Shown here: in pieces, positions 50,156-55,540 of the stretch
How positions within the stretch are numbered: position 1 is the first letter of the stretch
How the letters are laid out: each line of letters opens with the position of its first letter
Source: Escherichia phage ECO111 5-P
Sequence record: OR844765
DNA: 64,000 bases
Strand: one strand, 5' to 3'
The notes under the pieces: model-generated
The model's input: the letters and a program-made list of their open reading frames with translations, nothing else
What the model was told of the DNA's origin: nothing
The model's database searches: none
Translations under genes and position numbers: made by a program

Positions 50156-50177
50156 GAGGACTCCGGTCCTCCTTTTG
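50156..50177 (+). terminator. Rho-independent terminator
   Basis: GGAGGACTCCGGTCCTCC hairpin followed by TTTT. Confidence 0.6.
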
Positions 50178-50195
50178 GATAATAAAGGAGTCAAC

Positions 50196-50798
50196 ATGCG
50201 AAACCAAAATAATGATATTGACTCAATGTTCGAAGAGTTCAGAGATAAGGTAAATCCACCTACGTCTTTAGTTGATTCATTACGATATGTTGCAACTGGA
50301 CGTAAATGGTACTGGTCGTCTTCTTATGAGACTACTGAGAAAACGGCTAGCCATAGCAGAAAATCTTTATTAGCCCCAGGTATTATGATTCATGATATCG
50401 GAGCTATTGCTAAACTAGTTGCAGACCATGATATTAGATTCACCGATTTCGTTGCTCCTACATGGTCTGTTTGTTGTTTAAACACTGAATGGGAATATAT
50501 CAGCGAACGCTCTAAAGATTATTATGGTTTTAGAGATAAGCTTCTGAGGTCTAATATGTTTTATATCGATACAGAAGTTCTAGTCGATAATAAAAAATAT
50601 TACTTTACGTTAATCATCGATTCTGAAACTATGTATGAAGGCAAGCCTTTGCTTAAAAGAGTTGATGCTTTAAGTGCTATTGATGCGCTTTATGAAACTA
50701 TGGTTGTTAGTCCTAATTTCACTAACAATTTAATCCTTGAGCAATTTATTATGGAATGTAGAGAATATGTCAAAGCCAACCCTATACATGCCAAGTAA
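50196..50798 (+). CDS. Hypothetical protein ending in …LEQFIMECR… motif
   Basis: 200 aa from first ATG; C-terminal E-x-F-I-x-E-C-R shared with three other ORFs. Confidence 0.5.
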   Translation: MRNQNNDIDSMFEEFRDKVNPPTSLVDSLRYVATGRKWYWSSSYETTEKTASHSRKSLLAPGIMIHDIGAIAKLVADHDIRFTDFVAPTWSVCCLNTEWEYISERSKDYYGFRDKLLRSNMFYIDTEVLVDNKKYYFTLIIDSETMYEGKPLLKRVDALSAIDALYETMVVSPNFTNNLILEQFIMECREYVKANPIHAK

Positions 50799-51159
50799 GC
50801 CCTGGGCATACGAATACAAACGTAAATTAATACCAAACGAAGTACTATTTGGCCCTATTTTAGCTTTAGCATTTTTAATCTTTATGATTATAGGAGCTGT
50901 TTTAGATTCCAATAAAGTTATATCGTCCGATGCAGCGTTTTCATTAATGTTCGTCGCACCACTCATTGTACCGTTTTTATTAATGCCTATTAATTGGGCA
51001 GGATATTGGCACCAAGGCCGTCATCACAGAGCTCGAGTTCGTGAATGGAAAGTTCAGTGCGCAAAAGCTCAAGCTCAGTATGATGAAGCTGTTAAAAAGT
51101 ATGAATATGAAGAAGCTATGGAATTCGTTAAGGAGATAAGATGCAAAAGCCTGAACTGA
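50767..51159 (+). CDS. Small membrane protein (2 TM)
   Basis: Start at Met 11 of track ORF 50737 (TTG); hydrophobic segments VLFGPILALAFLIFMIIGAVL and AFSLMFVAPLIVPFLLMPINW; start uncertain. Confidence 0.45.
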   Translation: MSKPTLYMPSKPWAYEYKRKLIPNEVLFGPILALAFLIFMIIGAVLDSNKVISSDAAFSLMFVAPLIVPFLLMPINWAGYWHQGRHHRARVREWKVQCAKAQAQYDEAVKKYEYEEAMEFVKEIRCKSLN

Positions 51160-51257
51160 ATTTATGCTGTTTACGCTTCTCAAATGATTAGTTATAATGA
51201 ACTCCTAGCTAGACGTGAAAATGAAACAATCGAAAACTTTATTAAGGAATGTAGAAA

Positions 51258-51563
51258 ATGAGTAAGATTATTGAAATTAAAGTACCAGAGTTTAATGATG
51301 CCAAATCCGCTTCAGATGCAATTTATAAACTTCTGAATCAAGCTGAACGTATCGAAGAAGAAGCAACAAAGATCGCAGACAAATATGCCGTATCATTTTC
51401 TGTAGGTGATTATGGTAGTGGTCGTACTTATTATCCTAAGGGTGAAATCGTATCCCAGTGGATGAAAAATGAAATTGAAAATAACGGTGGCGATGTTAAG
51501 CGTGAAGGTAATGGTTACGTTATTACTGAAGGTGCTTGGGTTTCGTCTTCTGCGTTGTGCTAA
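51258..51563 (+). CDS. Small protein, paralog A of WVSSS-x-x-C family
   Basis: 101 aa; C-terminal GAWVSSSALC; shares KIADK… and YG-G-TY-PG motifs with paralog B. Confidence 0.55.
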   Translation: MSKIIEIKVPEFNDAKSASDAIYKLLNQAERIEEEATKIADKYAVSFSVGDYGSGRTYYPKGEIVSQWMKNEIENNGGDVKREGNGYVITEGAWVSSSALC

Positions 51564-51572
51564 GGAATCGTT

Positions 51573-51845
51573 ATGTCTAAAGAACAAACCGAACTGGTTG
51601 AAGCTGTAGCAAAAATCTATGCAGCTATTGAGGCTGCCAAAGAAATTGCTGATAAACAAAACACAACATTCAACTTGTACCCAGCTTATGGTATGGGTGG
51701 AACCTATCATTCACCTGGACATCTTAAAGCCGATCTTGAACGTTGTACAAAAAACGGCTATGCTGAATGGGCTGACGTTTACCAATACGACTACAACCTG
51801 AGCCTCGAAACTGGTGGTTGGGTCGCATCTTCTCACACTTGCTAA
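51573..51845 (+). CDS. Small protein, paralog B of WVSSS-x-x-C family
   Basis: 90 aa; C-terminal GGWVASSHTC. Confidence 0.55.
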   Translation: MSKEQTELVEAVAKIYAAIEAAKEIADKQNTTFNLYPAYGMGGTYHSPGHLKADLERCTKNGYAEWADVYQYDYNLSLETGGWVASSHTC

Positions 51846-51854
51846 GGAAACAAT

Positions 51855-53342: not shown

Positions 53343-53995
53343 CAATGGGACGTCCTATTATAGATTTATCAGGCCAAAAACATAACGGGATTACAATATT
53401 ATCTGTCTACTCCAAAGAGACAGGTAAAGCTACAAGATGGAAATGCCTATGTCATTGTGGAAATACCTTTGTATGTATTGGTAATTATGTGGTATCAGGC
53501 AAAACTAAATCATGTGGATGCAAAAGATACCACTATTCATTTATAAATGATAGAAAAACATACGCTTCATATACATCTATGCTAGGAAGATGTTTAGACC
53601 CTAATAATAAAAATTATCCTTCGTATGGTGGTTCTGGTATAACGGTTTGCAAAGATTGGGCAATGGGTGGTAAAGAAGGATATTTGAATTTTGTTAGAGA
53701 TATGGGAATTAGACCACCTAAAACTAGCATAAACCGAATAAACGGCTCTAAAATATACTCGAAAATTACATGTGAGTGGGCCTCATATAGTTTACAATCA
53801 TTTGACCAGAAACAGCGTAAAGACTCGCCTGGGCCTATATCCGGTGTTGTCTACAGAAAAGATAGAAATAAATGGGTCGCCGCCATAAATGTTAACGGTG
53901 AGTTGATTTCGTTATATTATGGTGACAGTGAAGACGAAGCTATAGAGGCGCGGCGTCGTGCAGAGATAAAATTTTTCGGTAGATTTAAAAACTAG
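53339..53995 (+). mobile_element. Putative free-standing homing endonuclease-like protein with C-terminal AP2 DNA-binding domain
   Basis: 218 aa; Cys cluster WKCLCHCGN…SCGCKRY plus YxxYxxMxxRC motif, then AP2-like SGVVYRKDRNKWVAAINVNGELISLYYGDSEDEAIEARRRAE; catalytic class not confirmed; overlaps upstream gene stop. Confidence 0.5.
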
Positions 53996-53997
53996 TG

Positions 53998-54034
53998 GTT
54001 TACAACAAGATAGGACTATGTTACAGTAGTCCTA
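53998..54034 (+). repeat. PeSL-like element (copy 4): GTTTAC plus dyad TAGGACTATGTTACAGTAGTCCTA
   Basis: Same architecture as copies 1-3. Confidence 0.55.
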
Positions 54035-54055
54035 TTAAAACATGAGGAGAATATT

Positions 54056-54361
54056 ATGAAATTAACAGAAACCAATCGAATCGGTCTTTTAACAATATTT
54101 GCATCACCTTTTTACGCAGTTCTTTCTGTTGCAGTATTACAAAAGGCTTACAGTATGGATGGTGTTCCTGGTTTTGTATTCTTATCACCGTTTTTATTAT
54201 TCGTCGGAGCTTTGTTATTATATGCCACGACTAGTTTCGACCATAATGTCTGGGTCAATTATAAACGTAAATTGTCCGAAGAAGAACACGCAGAAGCTCG
54301 TAAAAAAGCTATTGAATCTACCAATCTAGAAAATTTCATTAAAGAATGTCGAGGAAAATAA
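54056..54361 (+). CDS. Small membrane protein ending in …LENFIKECR motif
   Basis: 101 aa, two hydrophobic helices; C-terminal motif family. Confidence 0.55.
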   Translation: MKLTETNRIGLLTIFASPFYAVLSVAVLQKAYSMDGVPGFVFLSPFLLFVGALLLYATTSFDHNVWVNYKRKLSEEEHAEARKKAIESTNLENFIKECRGK

Positions 54362-54362
54362 T

Positions 54363-55049
54363 ATGAATAGTTCTAAAGTGTTTAATAGTCAAGCTCGTGC
54401 AGTAGGTGGTTTTGCTCATGCGATTAAAAACGATCAGATTAAAAACGAGCCTATGTTCTTTAACTGTGATTTGAATTTTGCTTTTGATAATGGCGGCCCA
54501 ATTACTCGTAGCTTTATCCAAAATCTTCCTGACGATTGGAAAGACTCGGATGTAGTATTTGATTCACGAGTCCACATGCTGATGCCTGGTTGGTACCCTG
54601 CTATTCCTGGATATCACCATGACGATGTTCCGCGCCCTGTTATTCCAGTCGGTCAACACTTTATTACTGCAGGACAACCTGACTATGACAACCCTCGTTA
54701 CCATTCTGAACATATTCTTGGTCTTGTTAACGCTGATGTGTGTCCTACTCATTTTGCAACAGGAACTGCAGAGTTCAGTCAGATTCCTGATGGCGAACTT
54801 ATCTATCGTCAGTGGCACAAAGAAGTCCTCGAAAAAATCGAAAAAGGCGAACTAGAGAAATGGGAAGCTCCAGACCGTACTCTTCTTCAGTTTGATTGGC
54901 AAACATGGCACACTGGTTCTCGTGCAATTAGTAATGGATGGCGTTGGTTCGGACGTGTATCTCGTAGTACAGACCGAGTTAAAAAGATTACCAATGAAAT
55001 TCGTGTCAACGCTCAAGTTTATCTAGAATTCCCTATGGAAGGCTGGTAA
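54363..55049 (+). CDS. Hypothetical protein (His/Asp-rich, possible metal-dependent enzyme)
   Basis: 228 aa; …PGYHHDDVPRP…YHSEH…; no confident family. Confidence 0.5.
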   Translation: MNSSKVFNSQARAVGGFAHAIKNDQIKNEPMFFNCDLNFAFDNGGPITRSFIQNLPDDWKDSDVVFDSRVHMLMPGWYPAIPGYHHDDVPRPVIPVGQHFITAGQPDYDNPRYHSEHILGLVNADVCPTHFATGTAEFSQIPDGELIYRQWHKEVLEKIEKGELEKWEAPDRTLLQFDWQTWHTGSRAISNGWRWFGRVSRSTDRVKKITNEIRVNAQVYLEFPMEGW

Positions 55050-55540
55050 TGATACAGAAAATTCACTGGTCAAACATGGACGATGGCGACGAAGGTATTT
55101 CATACTATTCAGTAGATTGGACAGGATGTCCATCCTACTTAGTGAAACATATTTGCCAAGAATTTAAAATCGACCAGCCAGCAGGTATTATCGTGAACAG
55201 ATACATTAATGGATATCAACCTATCGATGAAGTAATACGAACAACTCAAGCTGAGCTTGAAAAGTTTTTCAATAAGTGCCAATGGATAACAGGATGGATT
55301 ATATTTGTACCGTCGGTATGGTTTTTTAGTACTAAGGTGAGTTCTTTCGGTTTTGTTGATATTATTGCTATCTTATTAGCATCTAGTATCATAAGTGTTG
55401 TTGGTGGTATTATTGGTGGAGGTACTGTAGGCATCATTATTAATCTTGTTAAAAGTAGTTTACAGGAACGTAAAGACAAGATAAAAGCCAAGAATAATGA
55501 AGTTGAACGTTTTATTACCGAATGCAGGAATTTGAGATGA
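55049..55540 (+). CDS. Membrane protein ending in …VERFITECR motif
   Basis: 163 aa; soluble N-domain, Gly-rich hydrophobic segment (IISVVGGIIGGGTVGIII), then C-terminal motif. Confidence 0.55.
   Translation: MIQKIHWSNMDDGDEGISYYSVDWTGCPSYLVKHICQEFKIDQPAGIIVNRYINGYQPIDEVIRTTQAELEKFFNKCQWITGWIIFVPSVWFFSTKVSSFGFVDIIAILLASSIISVVGGIIGGGTVGIIINLVKSSLQERKDKIKAKNNEVERFITECRNLR

Follow-up and report, generated by a model that had tools for sequence, protein, structure and literature searches.

A conserved C-terminal peptide on unrelated early proteins of T4-like phages: a candidate docking helix

Five neighbouring early genes of Escherichia phage ECO111 5-P end in one short helix-forming peptide, Leu-x-x-Phe-Ile-x-x-Cys-Arg, which we propose, with a probability of about 0.5, to be an amphipathic C-terminal docking helix linking its carriers to a candidate common partner or to each other. 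The window analyzed, a 64-kb stretch of this phage's DNA, is RB69-like Mosigvirus sequence. The tail is carried there by e.5, e.3, the RB69ORF133c homologue (ORF133c below) and e.2, and e.4 has a degenerate fifth copy. The features are listed below.

49553..50146, + strand: e.6, a conserved coiled-coil protein heading the cluster; candidate partner, by inference only
50196-50798, + strand: e.5 CDS; soluble, 200 aa
50739..50762, + strand: motif copy 1, LEQFIMECR, in e.5; six-frame regex, PHROG 2607 match and family alignments
50767/50788-51159, + strand: e.4 CDS; about 2 transmembrane (TM) segments
51118..51141, + strand: degenerate copy, MEFVKEIR-CK, closing e.4; orthologues of the e.4 type terminate in FEFIKEVRRK or ELFIKNVRRK
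51141..51191, + strand: e.3 5′ stub, 16 codons (MQKPELN...), out of frame beyond the deletion junction
51184..51261, + strand: e.3 3′ remnant, a 25-codon ORF matching PHROG 2330 positions 98-122
51232-51255, + strand: motif copy 2, IENFIKECRK, in the e.3 remnant; six-frame regex
54056-54361, + strand: RB69ORF133c homologue CDS; 2 TM, 101 aa
54329..54352, + strand: motif copy 3, LENFIKECR, in the RB69ORF133c homologue; six-frame regex
55049-55540, + strand: e.2 CDS; soluble N-terminal domain, 2 TM and a cytoplasmic tail (cytoplasmic side inferred)
55505..55528, + strand: motif copy 4, VERFITECR, in e.2; six-frame regex, with F155, C159 and R160 invariant

A shared tail on unrelated bodies

The pattern E.FI.EC[RK] had exactly four matches across the six reading frames of the window, against 0.0019 matches expected from six-frame residue frequencies (Poisson P(≥4) about 5e-13), and zero matches were found in 40 first-order Markov simulations. 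All four lie on the + strand at 50.7–55.5 kb, a span of less than 5 kb, each at an ORF end; the pattern was set after the data had been seen, and the clustering is independent support for it. The original prediction that four ORF ends share this motif above random frequency was borne out, and the ends align at the protein level. Comparison across phages gives a wider core, hydrophobic(−3)-x-x-[F/W](0)-[I/V](+1)-x-x-C(+4)-[R/K](+5), usually followed by basic residues. The two Glu residues of ExFIxECR are lineage-specific and lie outside this core; on alignment, the ExFIxECR strings are the local version of a conserved C-terminal peptide module.

A search of T4-like genomes, as had been suggested with the prediction, recovered the same tail in T4 (e.5 LEKFVKECRE, e.3 KEFVIDCRK, e.2 NNFITECRK) and in 9 of the 9 genera checked, at the C-terminus, or close to it, in at least 12 protein groups that BLAST does not relate to one another and that are always encoded downstream of e.6. 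It is present in Dhakavirus, Kanagawavirus, Jiaodavirus, Tegunavirus, Karamvirus (6 copies), Tulanevirus and Pseudotevenvirus, and the number of tail-bearing membrane proteins varies from 1 to 6 per phage. Carriers comprise soluble proteins of 93–326 aa and proteins with 1–3 TM segments; in the small inner-membrane proteins e.4, e.3, ORF133c and e.2 the tail follows the last TM segment, and on soluble e.5 it is C-terminal. The shared tail was not found in the literature or family libraries searched, and searches of copies of Pfam, NCBIfam and PADLOC assigned none of e.2 to e.6 to a family.

With the tails removed, the bodies fall into 14 clusters (BLASTP, E≤0.01) and many PHROGs, and the four window carriers fall in four separate clusters; the carriers are thus not a single paralogous family. 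That the bodies upstream of the motif are unrelated, as originally proposed, stands at the BLAST level save for one weak match of ORF133c to the e.2 family PHROG (E 0.0012) over the TM region and tail. Between the window e.5 and its Dhakavirus and Jiaodavirus counterparts the BLASTP-alignable stretch covers only 6–13% of the query and, judged by its position and the shared tails, is the tail itself.

The weak ORF133c match speaks for a rather unlikely alternative, in which the tail is a relic of common descent: the carriers would be ancient tandem paralogues whose bodies have diverged, with the helix kept for each protein's own folding, insertion or self-oligomerisation. The tandem arrangement of the genes favours such a history, as do Yen9 gp148 and gp147, which share a BLAST cluster, the four adjacent tail-bearing 2-TM proteins of Karamvirus, and the W...W...LxxFIxxCR ending common to the small soluble carriers. 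Against it, soluble and membrane carriers have no detectable similarity once the tail is set aside, and the 200 aa of the e.5 family hold hardly any invariants besides F, C and R, which is unusual for a purely structural terminal helix. The two accounts overlap: a role in self- or hetero-oligomerisation would itself count as interaction.

Selection on the peptide and the next gene's start

In the e.5 family, whose members share about 20% identity, M1, N96, F184, C188 and R189 are invariant, and in 19 sequences L59 and Y147 are invariant as well. In the e.2 family the invariant F, C and R persist while the TM region diverges. We tallied codons over 44 distinct 30-nt motif instances: Cys is encoded by TGC (26) or TGT (18), Arg by AGA (11), CGT (11), CGA (7), CGC (7) or AGG (4), and Phe by TTT (28) or TTC (13). 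Differences in the motif between orthologues are synonymous only, and amino-acid identity is held across genera while nucleotides drift. Since all synonymous codons for Cys, Arg and Phe are used and these residues are nearly the only invariants in e.5 and e.2, comparison of the sequences shows that the module is maintained by purifying selection on its amino-acid sequence. The third-position differences first noticed in the window (TTT/TTC, TGT/TGC, AGA/CGA/AGG) are indeed present and synonymous, and their reading as selection at the peptide level is upheld. Some paralogues replace the Cys with Val, Ile or Met (ELFIKNVRRK, FEFIKEVRRK, FIQGIRG, WIKEMK), substitutions that would fit a packing role for this position.

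It is quite improbable that the codons are conserved as the translation-initiation region of the next gene, a Shine-Dalgarno or coupling element with the peptide as a by-product, but parts of the pattern do speak for such a signal. Measured from the Arg codon, the next ATG is a median of 8 nt away; in most copies an SD-like AAGGA, GAGGA or AGGA falls within the +2/+3 or Arg/+1 codons; and ATGA stop/start overlaps are common, as at the e.3 remnant, whose stop overlaps the following ATG. The tail codons of e.4 contain both the AAGGAG Shine-Dalgarno and the ATG (51141) of e.3, and deletion alleles retain the 3′ end. The register of the SD relative to the motif varies, however, with the SD sometimes well downstream, and Phe, Cys and Arg are each encoded by different synonymous codons, among them CGT and CGC, which carry no SD. 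In e.5-type genes, 5–25 codons separate the motif from the stop, and the next start can be as far as 103 nt away (AS-gz, GAP161, CfP1, Yen9 gp149); peptide identity is kept between genera despite nucleotide drift. A true element of this kind would be a purine-rich SD, conserved as nucleotides and held at a fixed 5–10-nt spacing from the following start. From the codon data, SD-like elements leave the invariance of F, C and R unexplained. The original description of the motif as lying immediately before the next gene start applies to the window, where the e.5 copy is 11 codons ahead of its stop and the T4-annotated e.4 start, ATG 50767, is 4 nt past its Arg codon; it does not apply in general, as anything between 1 and 103 nt can separate the Arg codon from the start that follows.

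Part of the local consensus, Lys/Glu-Glu encoded as AAGGAA or GAGGAA, doubles as the Shine-Dalgarno of the next gene and is therefore under some constraint at the nucleotide level, a point that counts against docking as the whole explanation of the tail. In T4-type genomes the genes are so closely spaced that tail codons overlap the ribosome-binding region of the following gene, and this overlap accounts for the retention of the 3′ end in deletion alleles (e.3 here, e.2 in T4).

The e.3 remnant and recombination

The motif had also been read as a recombination linker marking cassette 3′ ends, with the 25-codon remnant as support. According to this explanation, repeated 3′ ends supply homology for cassette shuffling and remnants are past exchanges. 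The copies in e.5 and e.3 are 91% identical over 22 nt, tail-only remnants occur here (e.3) and in T4 (e.2), and the metagenomic protein P0085 fuses an e.3 tail to an e.4 tail, all of which could reflect exchange. However, e.5 and e.3 are the only such pair, and the remaining copies carry synonymous differences and have no long stretch of exact homology in common. The remnant itself lends the linker no support and was rejected as one: it is the e.3 3′ end (the RB69 protein has 119 aa) left by a net 236-bp internal deletion that carries an 11-nt filler and has its junctions outside the motif. The same deletion allele is common to phiE142, TH12 and LF82-41. None of the indel boundaries among T4, RB69, JS98 and CIP9 runs motif-to-motif, and the large T4/RB69 indel between e.3 and e.2 does not have a motif at each of its two borders.

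PeSLs, the established shuffling elements of T4-type hyperplastic regions, resemble the tails in being short repeats set beside variable ORFs in this type of region (PMC2839356, PMC4122927). A PeSL, by definition, is a non-coding early promoter (TTTACW-N17-TAYWAT) with a stem-loop, located 5′ of ORFs, conserved as DNA and recombinogenic, whereas the tail is coding, 3′-terminal and conserved as peptide, varies synonymously and lies off the breakpoints; the motif is thus not a PeSL cassette. PeSL-like non-coding repeats are present separately, at 49191-49247, 52052-52108 and 53993-54049, and a linker function for the tail appears very improbable. Because soluble and membrane proteins that are otherwise unrelated keep the peptide throughout T4-like phages, we favour a docking handle over a recombination scar.

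The predicted helix and candidate partners

The hydrophobic residues of the module fall at i, i+3, i+4 and i+7, on one face of an alpha-helix. The mean hydrophobic moment of the tails is 0.55 vs 0.35 for shuffles, and 23 of 24 tails exceed the shuffle mean. The motif region is helical in a model of e.5 (H177-194), but at a pLDDT of 38 the model is unusable for judging whether the helix is exposed or packs on its own domain. A Lys/Arg-rich stretch straight after the last TM segment suggests, by the positive-inside rule, that the tails of the membrane proteins face the cytoplasm. The helix would then act as a docking or assembly handle that gathers early proteins onto one common partner or, alternatively, might bundle the carriers together at the inner membrane. 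A shared C-terminal interaction tag, one of the two functions first suggested for the motif, is the reading best supported by the comparative data, although the tail could serve each protein's own folding or insertion instead. CRISPRi-ART scores T4 e.2 to e.6, of unknown function, as 'Not Fit' (knock-down without fitness effect), which gives the docking helix no anchoring phenotype (PMC11879866 supplement file 15).

Among known systems, the closest functional analogy may be the clamp-binding tails, which are likewise short hydrophobic/charged C-terminal peptides on unrelated proteins of the same phage. The C-terminal tails of T4/RB69 gp43, gp33 and gp55 bind the sliding clamp gp45; unlike the tails described here, they lack a Cys-Arg core, have a known partner and are borne by replication and transcription proteins rather than by small membrane proteins of a hyperplastic region. 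MinD and FtsA carry C-terminal amphipathic membrane-targeting helices. By hydrophobic moment and the e.5 helix prediction our tails are also terminal amphipathic helices, here on soluble e.5 as well, but they do not have the net basic, sequence-unspecific face of a generic membrane-targeting helix: their net charge is about −2 to +2 over 11 residues, with conserved acidic positions. That Cys and Arg are invariant speaks for specific contact with a protein over generic lipid binding.

Five genes with the capsid-targeting sequence (CTS) of internal proteins, starting MKTYxEF[IL]xE, flank the cluster on both sides (45013, 45386, 56741, 57825 and 58165). The CTS is removed by the gp21 prohead protease. 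It resembles the tail as an amphipathic module of roughly 10 residues with an xEF[IL]xE core on polymorphic, unrelated proteins, and its cores EFIAE and EFITE recall tail sequences RFIAE, RFITE and NFIKE, with the same −3/0/+1 hydrophobic spacing. A kinship between the two, with I-x-E as a gp21 protease site, is nonetheless hardly credible. The CTS is strictly N-terminal behind Met-Lys-Thr, lacks Cys-Arg and is found on virion proteins; every tail is C-terminal with the core F-[IV]-x-x-C-R, and the carriers are mostly membrane proteins encoded in a cluster of early genes. Tails partly match the CTS core [YF]-x-E-F-[IL]-x-E (as xFIAE or xFITE) in the T4, RB69 and JS98 lineages, and outside them the +3 Glu is unconserved (Q, G, Y, S, M, N, D, K, R).

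For the docking helix, the best candidate partner would be e.6, a long helical-hairpin protein, with synteny as the only basis. In each of the 9 genera checked (14 genomes), the motif is borne by the gene directly downstream of e.6, and the pairing holds in Aeromonas and Pseudotevenvirus phages, where e.6 sits in a different genome context; no motif ORFs occur upstream of e.6 within the sequence scanned. Vipp1/PspA are the top matches of e.6 in a Foldseek fold search. Members of the PspA/Vipp1/ESCRT-III superfamily have an N-terminal amphipathic helix, a long alpha1-alpha2/3 hairpin and short C-terminal helices, and ESCRT-III/Vipp1 scaffolds use helical binding motifs. The gene order resembles that of PspA with PspB/PspC, a gene for a hairpin, scaffold-like protein (e.6) followed by genes for small inner-membrane proteins whose helical tails are predicted to face the cytoplasm. 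Profile comparison of e.6 with the PDB reaches Vipp1, colinear, at an E of only about 1–2; hhalign against E. coli PspA gives a probability of 0.2%, and none of 30 family members has a Pfam match (PspA_IM30 or Snf7 sought). It is a rather improbable proposal that e.6 is a PspA/Vipp1/ESCRT-III-like (or BAR-like) scaffold, with e.5, e.4, e.3, ORF133c and e.2 as interchangeable LxxFIxxCR adaptors that recruit or regulate it at the inner membrane.

Genes e.2 to e.6 are part of the 'dark matter' that is conserved in the best-studied phage family. Through the tail that selection maintains on them, at least five such genes, and a dozen families in other genera, are linked as one functional set, and a peptide of roughly 12 residues with near-invariant F, C and R offers a direct experimental handle on them. 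The finding also illustrates how, in packed phage genomes, one nucleotide stretch serves both a peptide motif and the next ribosome-binding site. If the scaffold proposal is true, T4-like phages would encode a membrane-associated assembly of their own, and their varying sets of tail-bearing membrane proteins would form a repertoire that adapts one conserved machine to the host.

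Motif-bearing ORF ends in the early-gene cluster

The pattern E.FI.EC[RK] has exactly four matches when all 64 kb are translated in six frames (at 50739, 51232, 54329 and 55505), where residue frequencies predict 0.0019 (Poisson P(≥4) ~5e-13), and 40 Markov simulations gave none. Both the expected count and the simulations rule out a random frequency of the motif, and the original prediction that four ORFs end in the same peptide was confirmed, with five corrections added. The looser pattern F[IV]..C[RK] yielded only three further matches, and the one inspected opposes a real minus-strand gene. 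ISYWVEECK* at 40691 was rejected as a chance occurrence; it lies in a non-coding frame, with a real minus-strand gene on the other strand.

Over 88% of the stretch 50100–55700, identity to RB69 and its relatives is 96–97%; the window belongs to an RB69-group T4-like phage (Mosigvirus). The 12% of the query left uncovered by the closest relatives is accounted for by an HNH-type homing-endonuclease-like ORF (53345–53995; PHROG 374, E 4.5e-59; weak AP2 and CapR matches) situated between the ORF134c and ORF133c homologues, where RB69 has only a 69-nt spacer. According to the RB69 and T4 annotations, the early-gene cluster runs e.6 → e.5 → e.4 → e.3 → ... → e.2 → nudE → e, all on the plus strand. 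The four predicted ORFs and other features of the cluster are:

50196–50798, plus strand: e.5, predicted ORF
51141–51191, plus strand: 16-codon stub of e.3, left by a deletion beside the 25-codon tail ORF
51184–51261, plus strand: tail of e.3, the predicted 25-codon ORF
54056–54361, plus strand: RB69ORF133c homologue, predicted ORF
55049–55540, plus strand: gene named e.2 in RB69, predicted ORF
56244–56744, plus strand: e (lysozyme)
49191–49247, 52052–52108 and 53993–54049: three copies of a 57-nt PeSL-like cassette (promoter and stem-loop)

The C-terminus of e.4 is a degenerate fifth copy (MEFVKEIRCK, 51118–51141); the AAGGAG Shine-Dalgarno (SD) element and the ATG of e.3 lie within its Lys-Glu and Arg-Cys codons. 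The motif was said to stand immediately before the next gene start. This holds in the window but not across all copies: the median from the Arg codon to that start is 8 nt, and the distance ranges from 1 to 103 nt. The e.5 motif lies 11 codons upstream of its stop, with the T4-annotated e.4 start (ATG 50767) 4 nt after the motif.

Searches of Pfam, NCBIfam and PADLOC returned nothing significant for e.6 or any tail-bearing protein. In PHROGs the carriers fall into separate families, all of unknown function, and e.5 carries the precomputed tag of a recent Pfam family, PF26876, absent from the Pfam copy searched. Our literature search on e.x genes or phage-encoded PspA-like proteins found nothing relevant. 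CRISPRi-ART classes T4 e.2 to e.6 as 'Not Fit' (knock-down without fitness effect) and gives their function as unknown.

Several other features lie within the cluster. Three tandem ORFs (51258–51563, 51573–51845 and 51855–52052; 101, 90 and 65 aa) end in G-x-W-[VI]-[SA]-S-[SH]-x-x-C-stop (…EGAWVSSSALC*, …GGWVASSHTC* and …QGWVSSSYSC*), ends that are repeated at the DNA level too. They form a second, unrelated C-terminal motif family (W-x-S-S-S-x-x-C), which has 4–6 tandem copies in CIP9, PEi20, Kosakonia 305, Yen9-01 and Pet-CM3-4 and no match in Pfam, NCBIfam or PADLOC. The first of these ORFs corresponds to RB69ORF139c plus ORF138c (3898–4204 of the RB69 locus, L001); the split in RB69 comes from one extra T (GTGGTATGAAAA versus GTGG-ATGAAAA), either a frameshift allele or an RB69 sequencing error. 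A 319-aa protein of unknown function (52383–53342; Pfam DUF7277 and DUF7275, E 4e-27 and 9e-77) occupies the same position in RB69, JS98, CIP9, PEi20, Yen9-01 and Pet-CM3-4. Between e.6 and e.5 lies a GC-rich, terminator-like hairpin (50155–50172; GGAGGACTCCGGTCCTCC, then TTTT) that includes a RegB cleavage motif (GGAG), and this may loosen the link between e.6 and the tail-bearing genes in transcription or mRNA stability.

The tail in other T4-like phages

We compared the e.6-to-e regions of T4, RB69, JS98, VR5, CIP9, PEi20, Kosakonia 305, Mineola, fHe-Yen9-01, Pet-CM3-4, AS-gz, GAP161 and CfP1 and scanned their ORF ends. Each of these genomes bears the tail on at least one gene and at most six, all of them downstream of e.6, and the sequence scanned upstream of e.6 held no motif-bearing ORFs.

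Tails in compared genomes
T4: LEKFVKECRE, KEFVIDCRK, NNFITECRK
JS98: LNRFIAECRE, LETFIKECKS, LNSFIEECRK
CIP9: VLDFVDQCRA, LDKFIKQCRR, FDKFVKGCRN
Mineola: IDEFIKYCRK, FNTWIRSCRK, LELFIAKCRA
Yen9-01: LLDFIDQCRR, FKDFISECRG, VNEFVTYCRG
Pet-CM3-4: six copies
AS-gz: IEMFVDYCRR
GAP161 and CfP1: [MI]EKFIHSCKK

The conserved core is hydrophobic(-3)-x-x-[FW]-[IV]-x-x-C-[RK], counted from the Phe/Trp and usually followed by basic residues; the two Glu of the local motif are lineage-specific. The gene just downstream of e.6 bears the motif in all that could be checked (9/9 genera, 14 genomes), including Aeromonas phages and pseudotevenviruses, in which e.6 lies beside nrd genes, not e. A 35-position tail profile built from window sequences and run against 1.84 billion representatives recovered only the carriers' own families and one chimera; a motif this short cannot score significantly on new bodies. 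The chimera, a 60-aa metagenomic protein (P0085), fuses an e.3 fragment, whose tail runs up to ...ENETIE, with the e.4 tail AVKKYEYEEAMEFVKEIRCKSLN. This is the opposite of genome order, so P0085 either comes from a phage with rearranged genes or is an artefact of assembly. Related-locus searches in IMG/VR gave 2, then 11 loci, mostly isolate genomes.

Selection on the peptide, and nucleotide-level alternatives

Differences between the copies had been read as selection on the peptide rather than on an RNA signal. The synonymous differences are visible in the nucleotide alignment, and among orthologous instances differences occur at synonymous positions only. Over 44 distinct 30-nt motif instances, Cys is encoded by TGC (26) or TGT (18), Phe by TTT (28) or TTC (13), and Arg by AGA (11), CGT (11), CGA (7), CGC (7) or AGG (4). 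In the e.5 family, whose members share ~20% identity (Tequatro-, Mosig-, Kanagawa-, Jiaoda- and Dhakavirus), only M1, N96, F184, C188 and R189 are invariant; aligning 19 sequences adds L59 and Y147. Members of the e.2 family all keep F155, C159 and R160, while their membrane segments diverge. BLASTP aligns only 6–13% of window e.5 with its Dhaka and Jiaoda counterparts, a part that we take, from the shared tails, to be the tail.

A rival reading takes the tail as a translation-initiation signal. The SD-like element lies at the +2/+3 codons (AAGGAA, GAGGAA), at the Arg/+1 codons (CGAGGA, AGGAAA, AGAAGG) or well downstream, and this variation in register and distance, together with codon usage, argues against an RNA signal as sole cause. 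Selection thus acts at the amino-acid level on F, [IV], C and R, and the peptide-level reading stands for these residues; in the local consensus, Lys/Glu-Glu may owe part of its form to a second use as SD.

The other nucleotide-level explanation, a recombination linker marking cassette ends, had drawn on the 25-codon ORF as a free-standing remnant. Comparison with RB69 shows that this ORF is the tail of e.3, itself a membrane protein at full length (119 aa in RB69, ending ...YNELLAKRENETIENFIKECRK). The match to RB69 stops 20 nt into e.3 and resumes with the last 93 nt ahead of its stop; unrelated sequence of 11 nt fills the junction, and the net loss is 236 bp. Phage phiE142 carries the same deletion allele, as do TH12 and LF82-41, judged only by tblastn coverage of residues 90–119. 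T4 offers a parallel. Its annotated e.2 (NC_000866) is truncated, at 102 aa versus 163–197 aa in RB69, JS98 and VR5, and the unannotated e.2–nudE gap (~7492–7652 of the locus, minus strand) still codes for ...KKYAQNLNNFITECRKLK; its C-terminal 36 codons, MFIEMPWRLRRQQKIFDEKKYAQNLNNFITECRKLK, are almost identical to the VR5 e.2 tail, and the T4T annotation includes an 'e.2a'. The kept 3′ ends of window e.3 and T4 e.2 hold the SD and overlapping start of the next gene, which is sufficient reason for the deletions to have spared them.

Genuine cassettes are present in the window as the three 57-nt repeats, separate from the tails. Each consists of TTTACA-N17-TATAGT (or TACAGT) with an upstream TG, an ATAGGRC...GTCCTAT stem-loop and, after these, an SD, and resembles the PeSLs of T4-type phages, mobile promoter/stem-loop cassettes with recombination and regulatory roles (PMC2839356, PMC4122927). 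Based on the e.3 deletion structure and this repeat analysis, we reject the linker explanation.

Carrier proteins and a predicted docking role

With tails removed, all-against-all BLASTP (E≤0.01) placed 32 proteins in 14 clusters, and the four window carriers fell into four different ones. By BLAST their bodies are thus unrelated, as originally proposed; ORF133c has one weak match to the e.2 PHROG over the transmembrane (TM) region and tail (E 0.0012), and profile comparison links e.5-type proteins from several genera. The tail might alternatively be a pure paralogue relic or a self-folding element, and the neighbouring Yen9 gp148 and gp147 are clearly paralogous. Carriers are of at least three kinds: long soluble proteins (e.5 type, 178–326 aa), small soluble proteins (~95–110 aa) and proteins with 1–3 TM segments, the last of which leads into a charged stretch and the motif. 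Since Lys/Arg-rich sequence directly behind that segment obeys the positive-inside rule, the tail of these proteins is probably cytoplasmic.

Hydrophobic positions -3, 0, +1 and +4 form a single face of an alpha-helix, and 24 tails have an average hydrophobic moment of 0.55, against 0.35 for shuffles. An AF2 model of e.5 from the 19-sequence alignment was unusable overall (pLDDT 38); in it, the motif falls within a terminal helix (177–194). Val, Ile or Met replaces Cys in some e.4-like paralogues, which argues for packing rather than chemistry as the role of this residue.

The motif is a peptide module under purifying selection, helix-compatible, amphipathic and C-terminal, carried by a mix of unrelated proteins, soluble and membrane-bound, whose genes invariably lie downstream of e.6. 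We predict that it is a helix for docking or assembly, through which these proteins would bind one shared partner or associate with each other. The coiled-coil protein e.6 is a candidate partner, because e.6 and a tail-bearing gene stay paired where the genome context differs.

The protein-family libraries (Pfam, NCBIfam, PADLOC, PHROGs) and literature searched hold no description of the tail. Kinship with the capsid-targeting sequence (CTS), a short terminal peptide likewise common to unrelated phage proteins, is an unlikely reading. Five CTS genes flank the cluster, and their xF[IL]xE core is partly matched in tails of the T4, RB69 and JS98 lineages, yet the CTS stands at the N-terminus and has no Cys-Arg. 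These five ORFs (45013, 45386, 56741, 57825 and 58165), on both sides of the e.6-to-e cluster, begin with MKT[YF]xEF[IL]xE, and T4 ipII and ipIII have the same type of start. A docking tail would be closer in kind to the clamp-binding tails of T4 gp43, gp33 and gp55, short C-terminal peptides common to unrelated proteins of one phage. By this analogy, the tail described here would be a new example of such shared terminal peptides, with a putative partner of its own.
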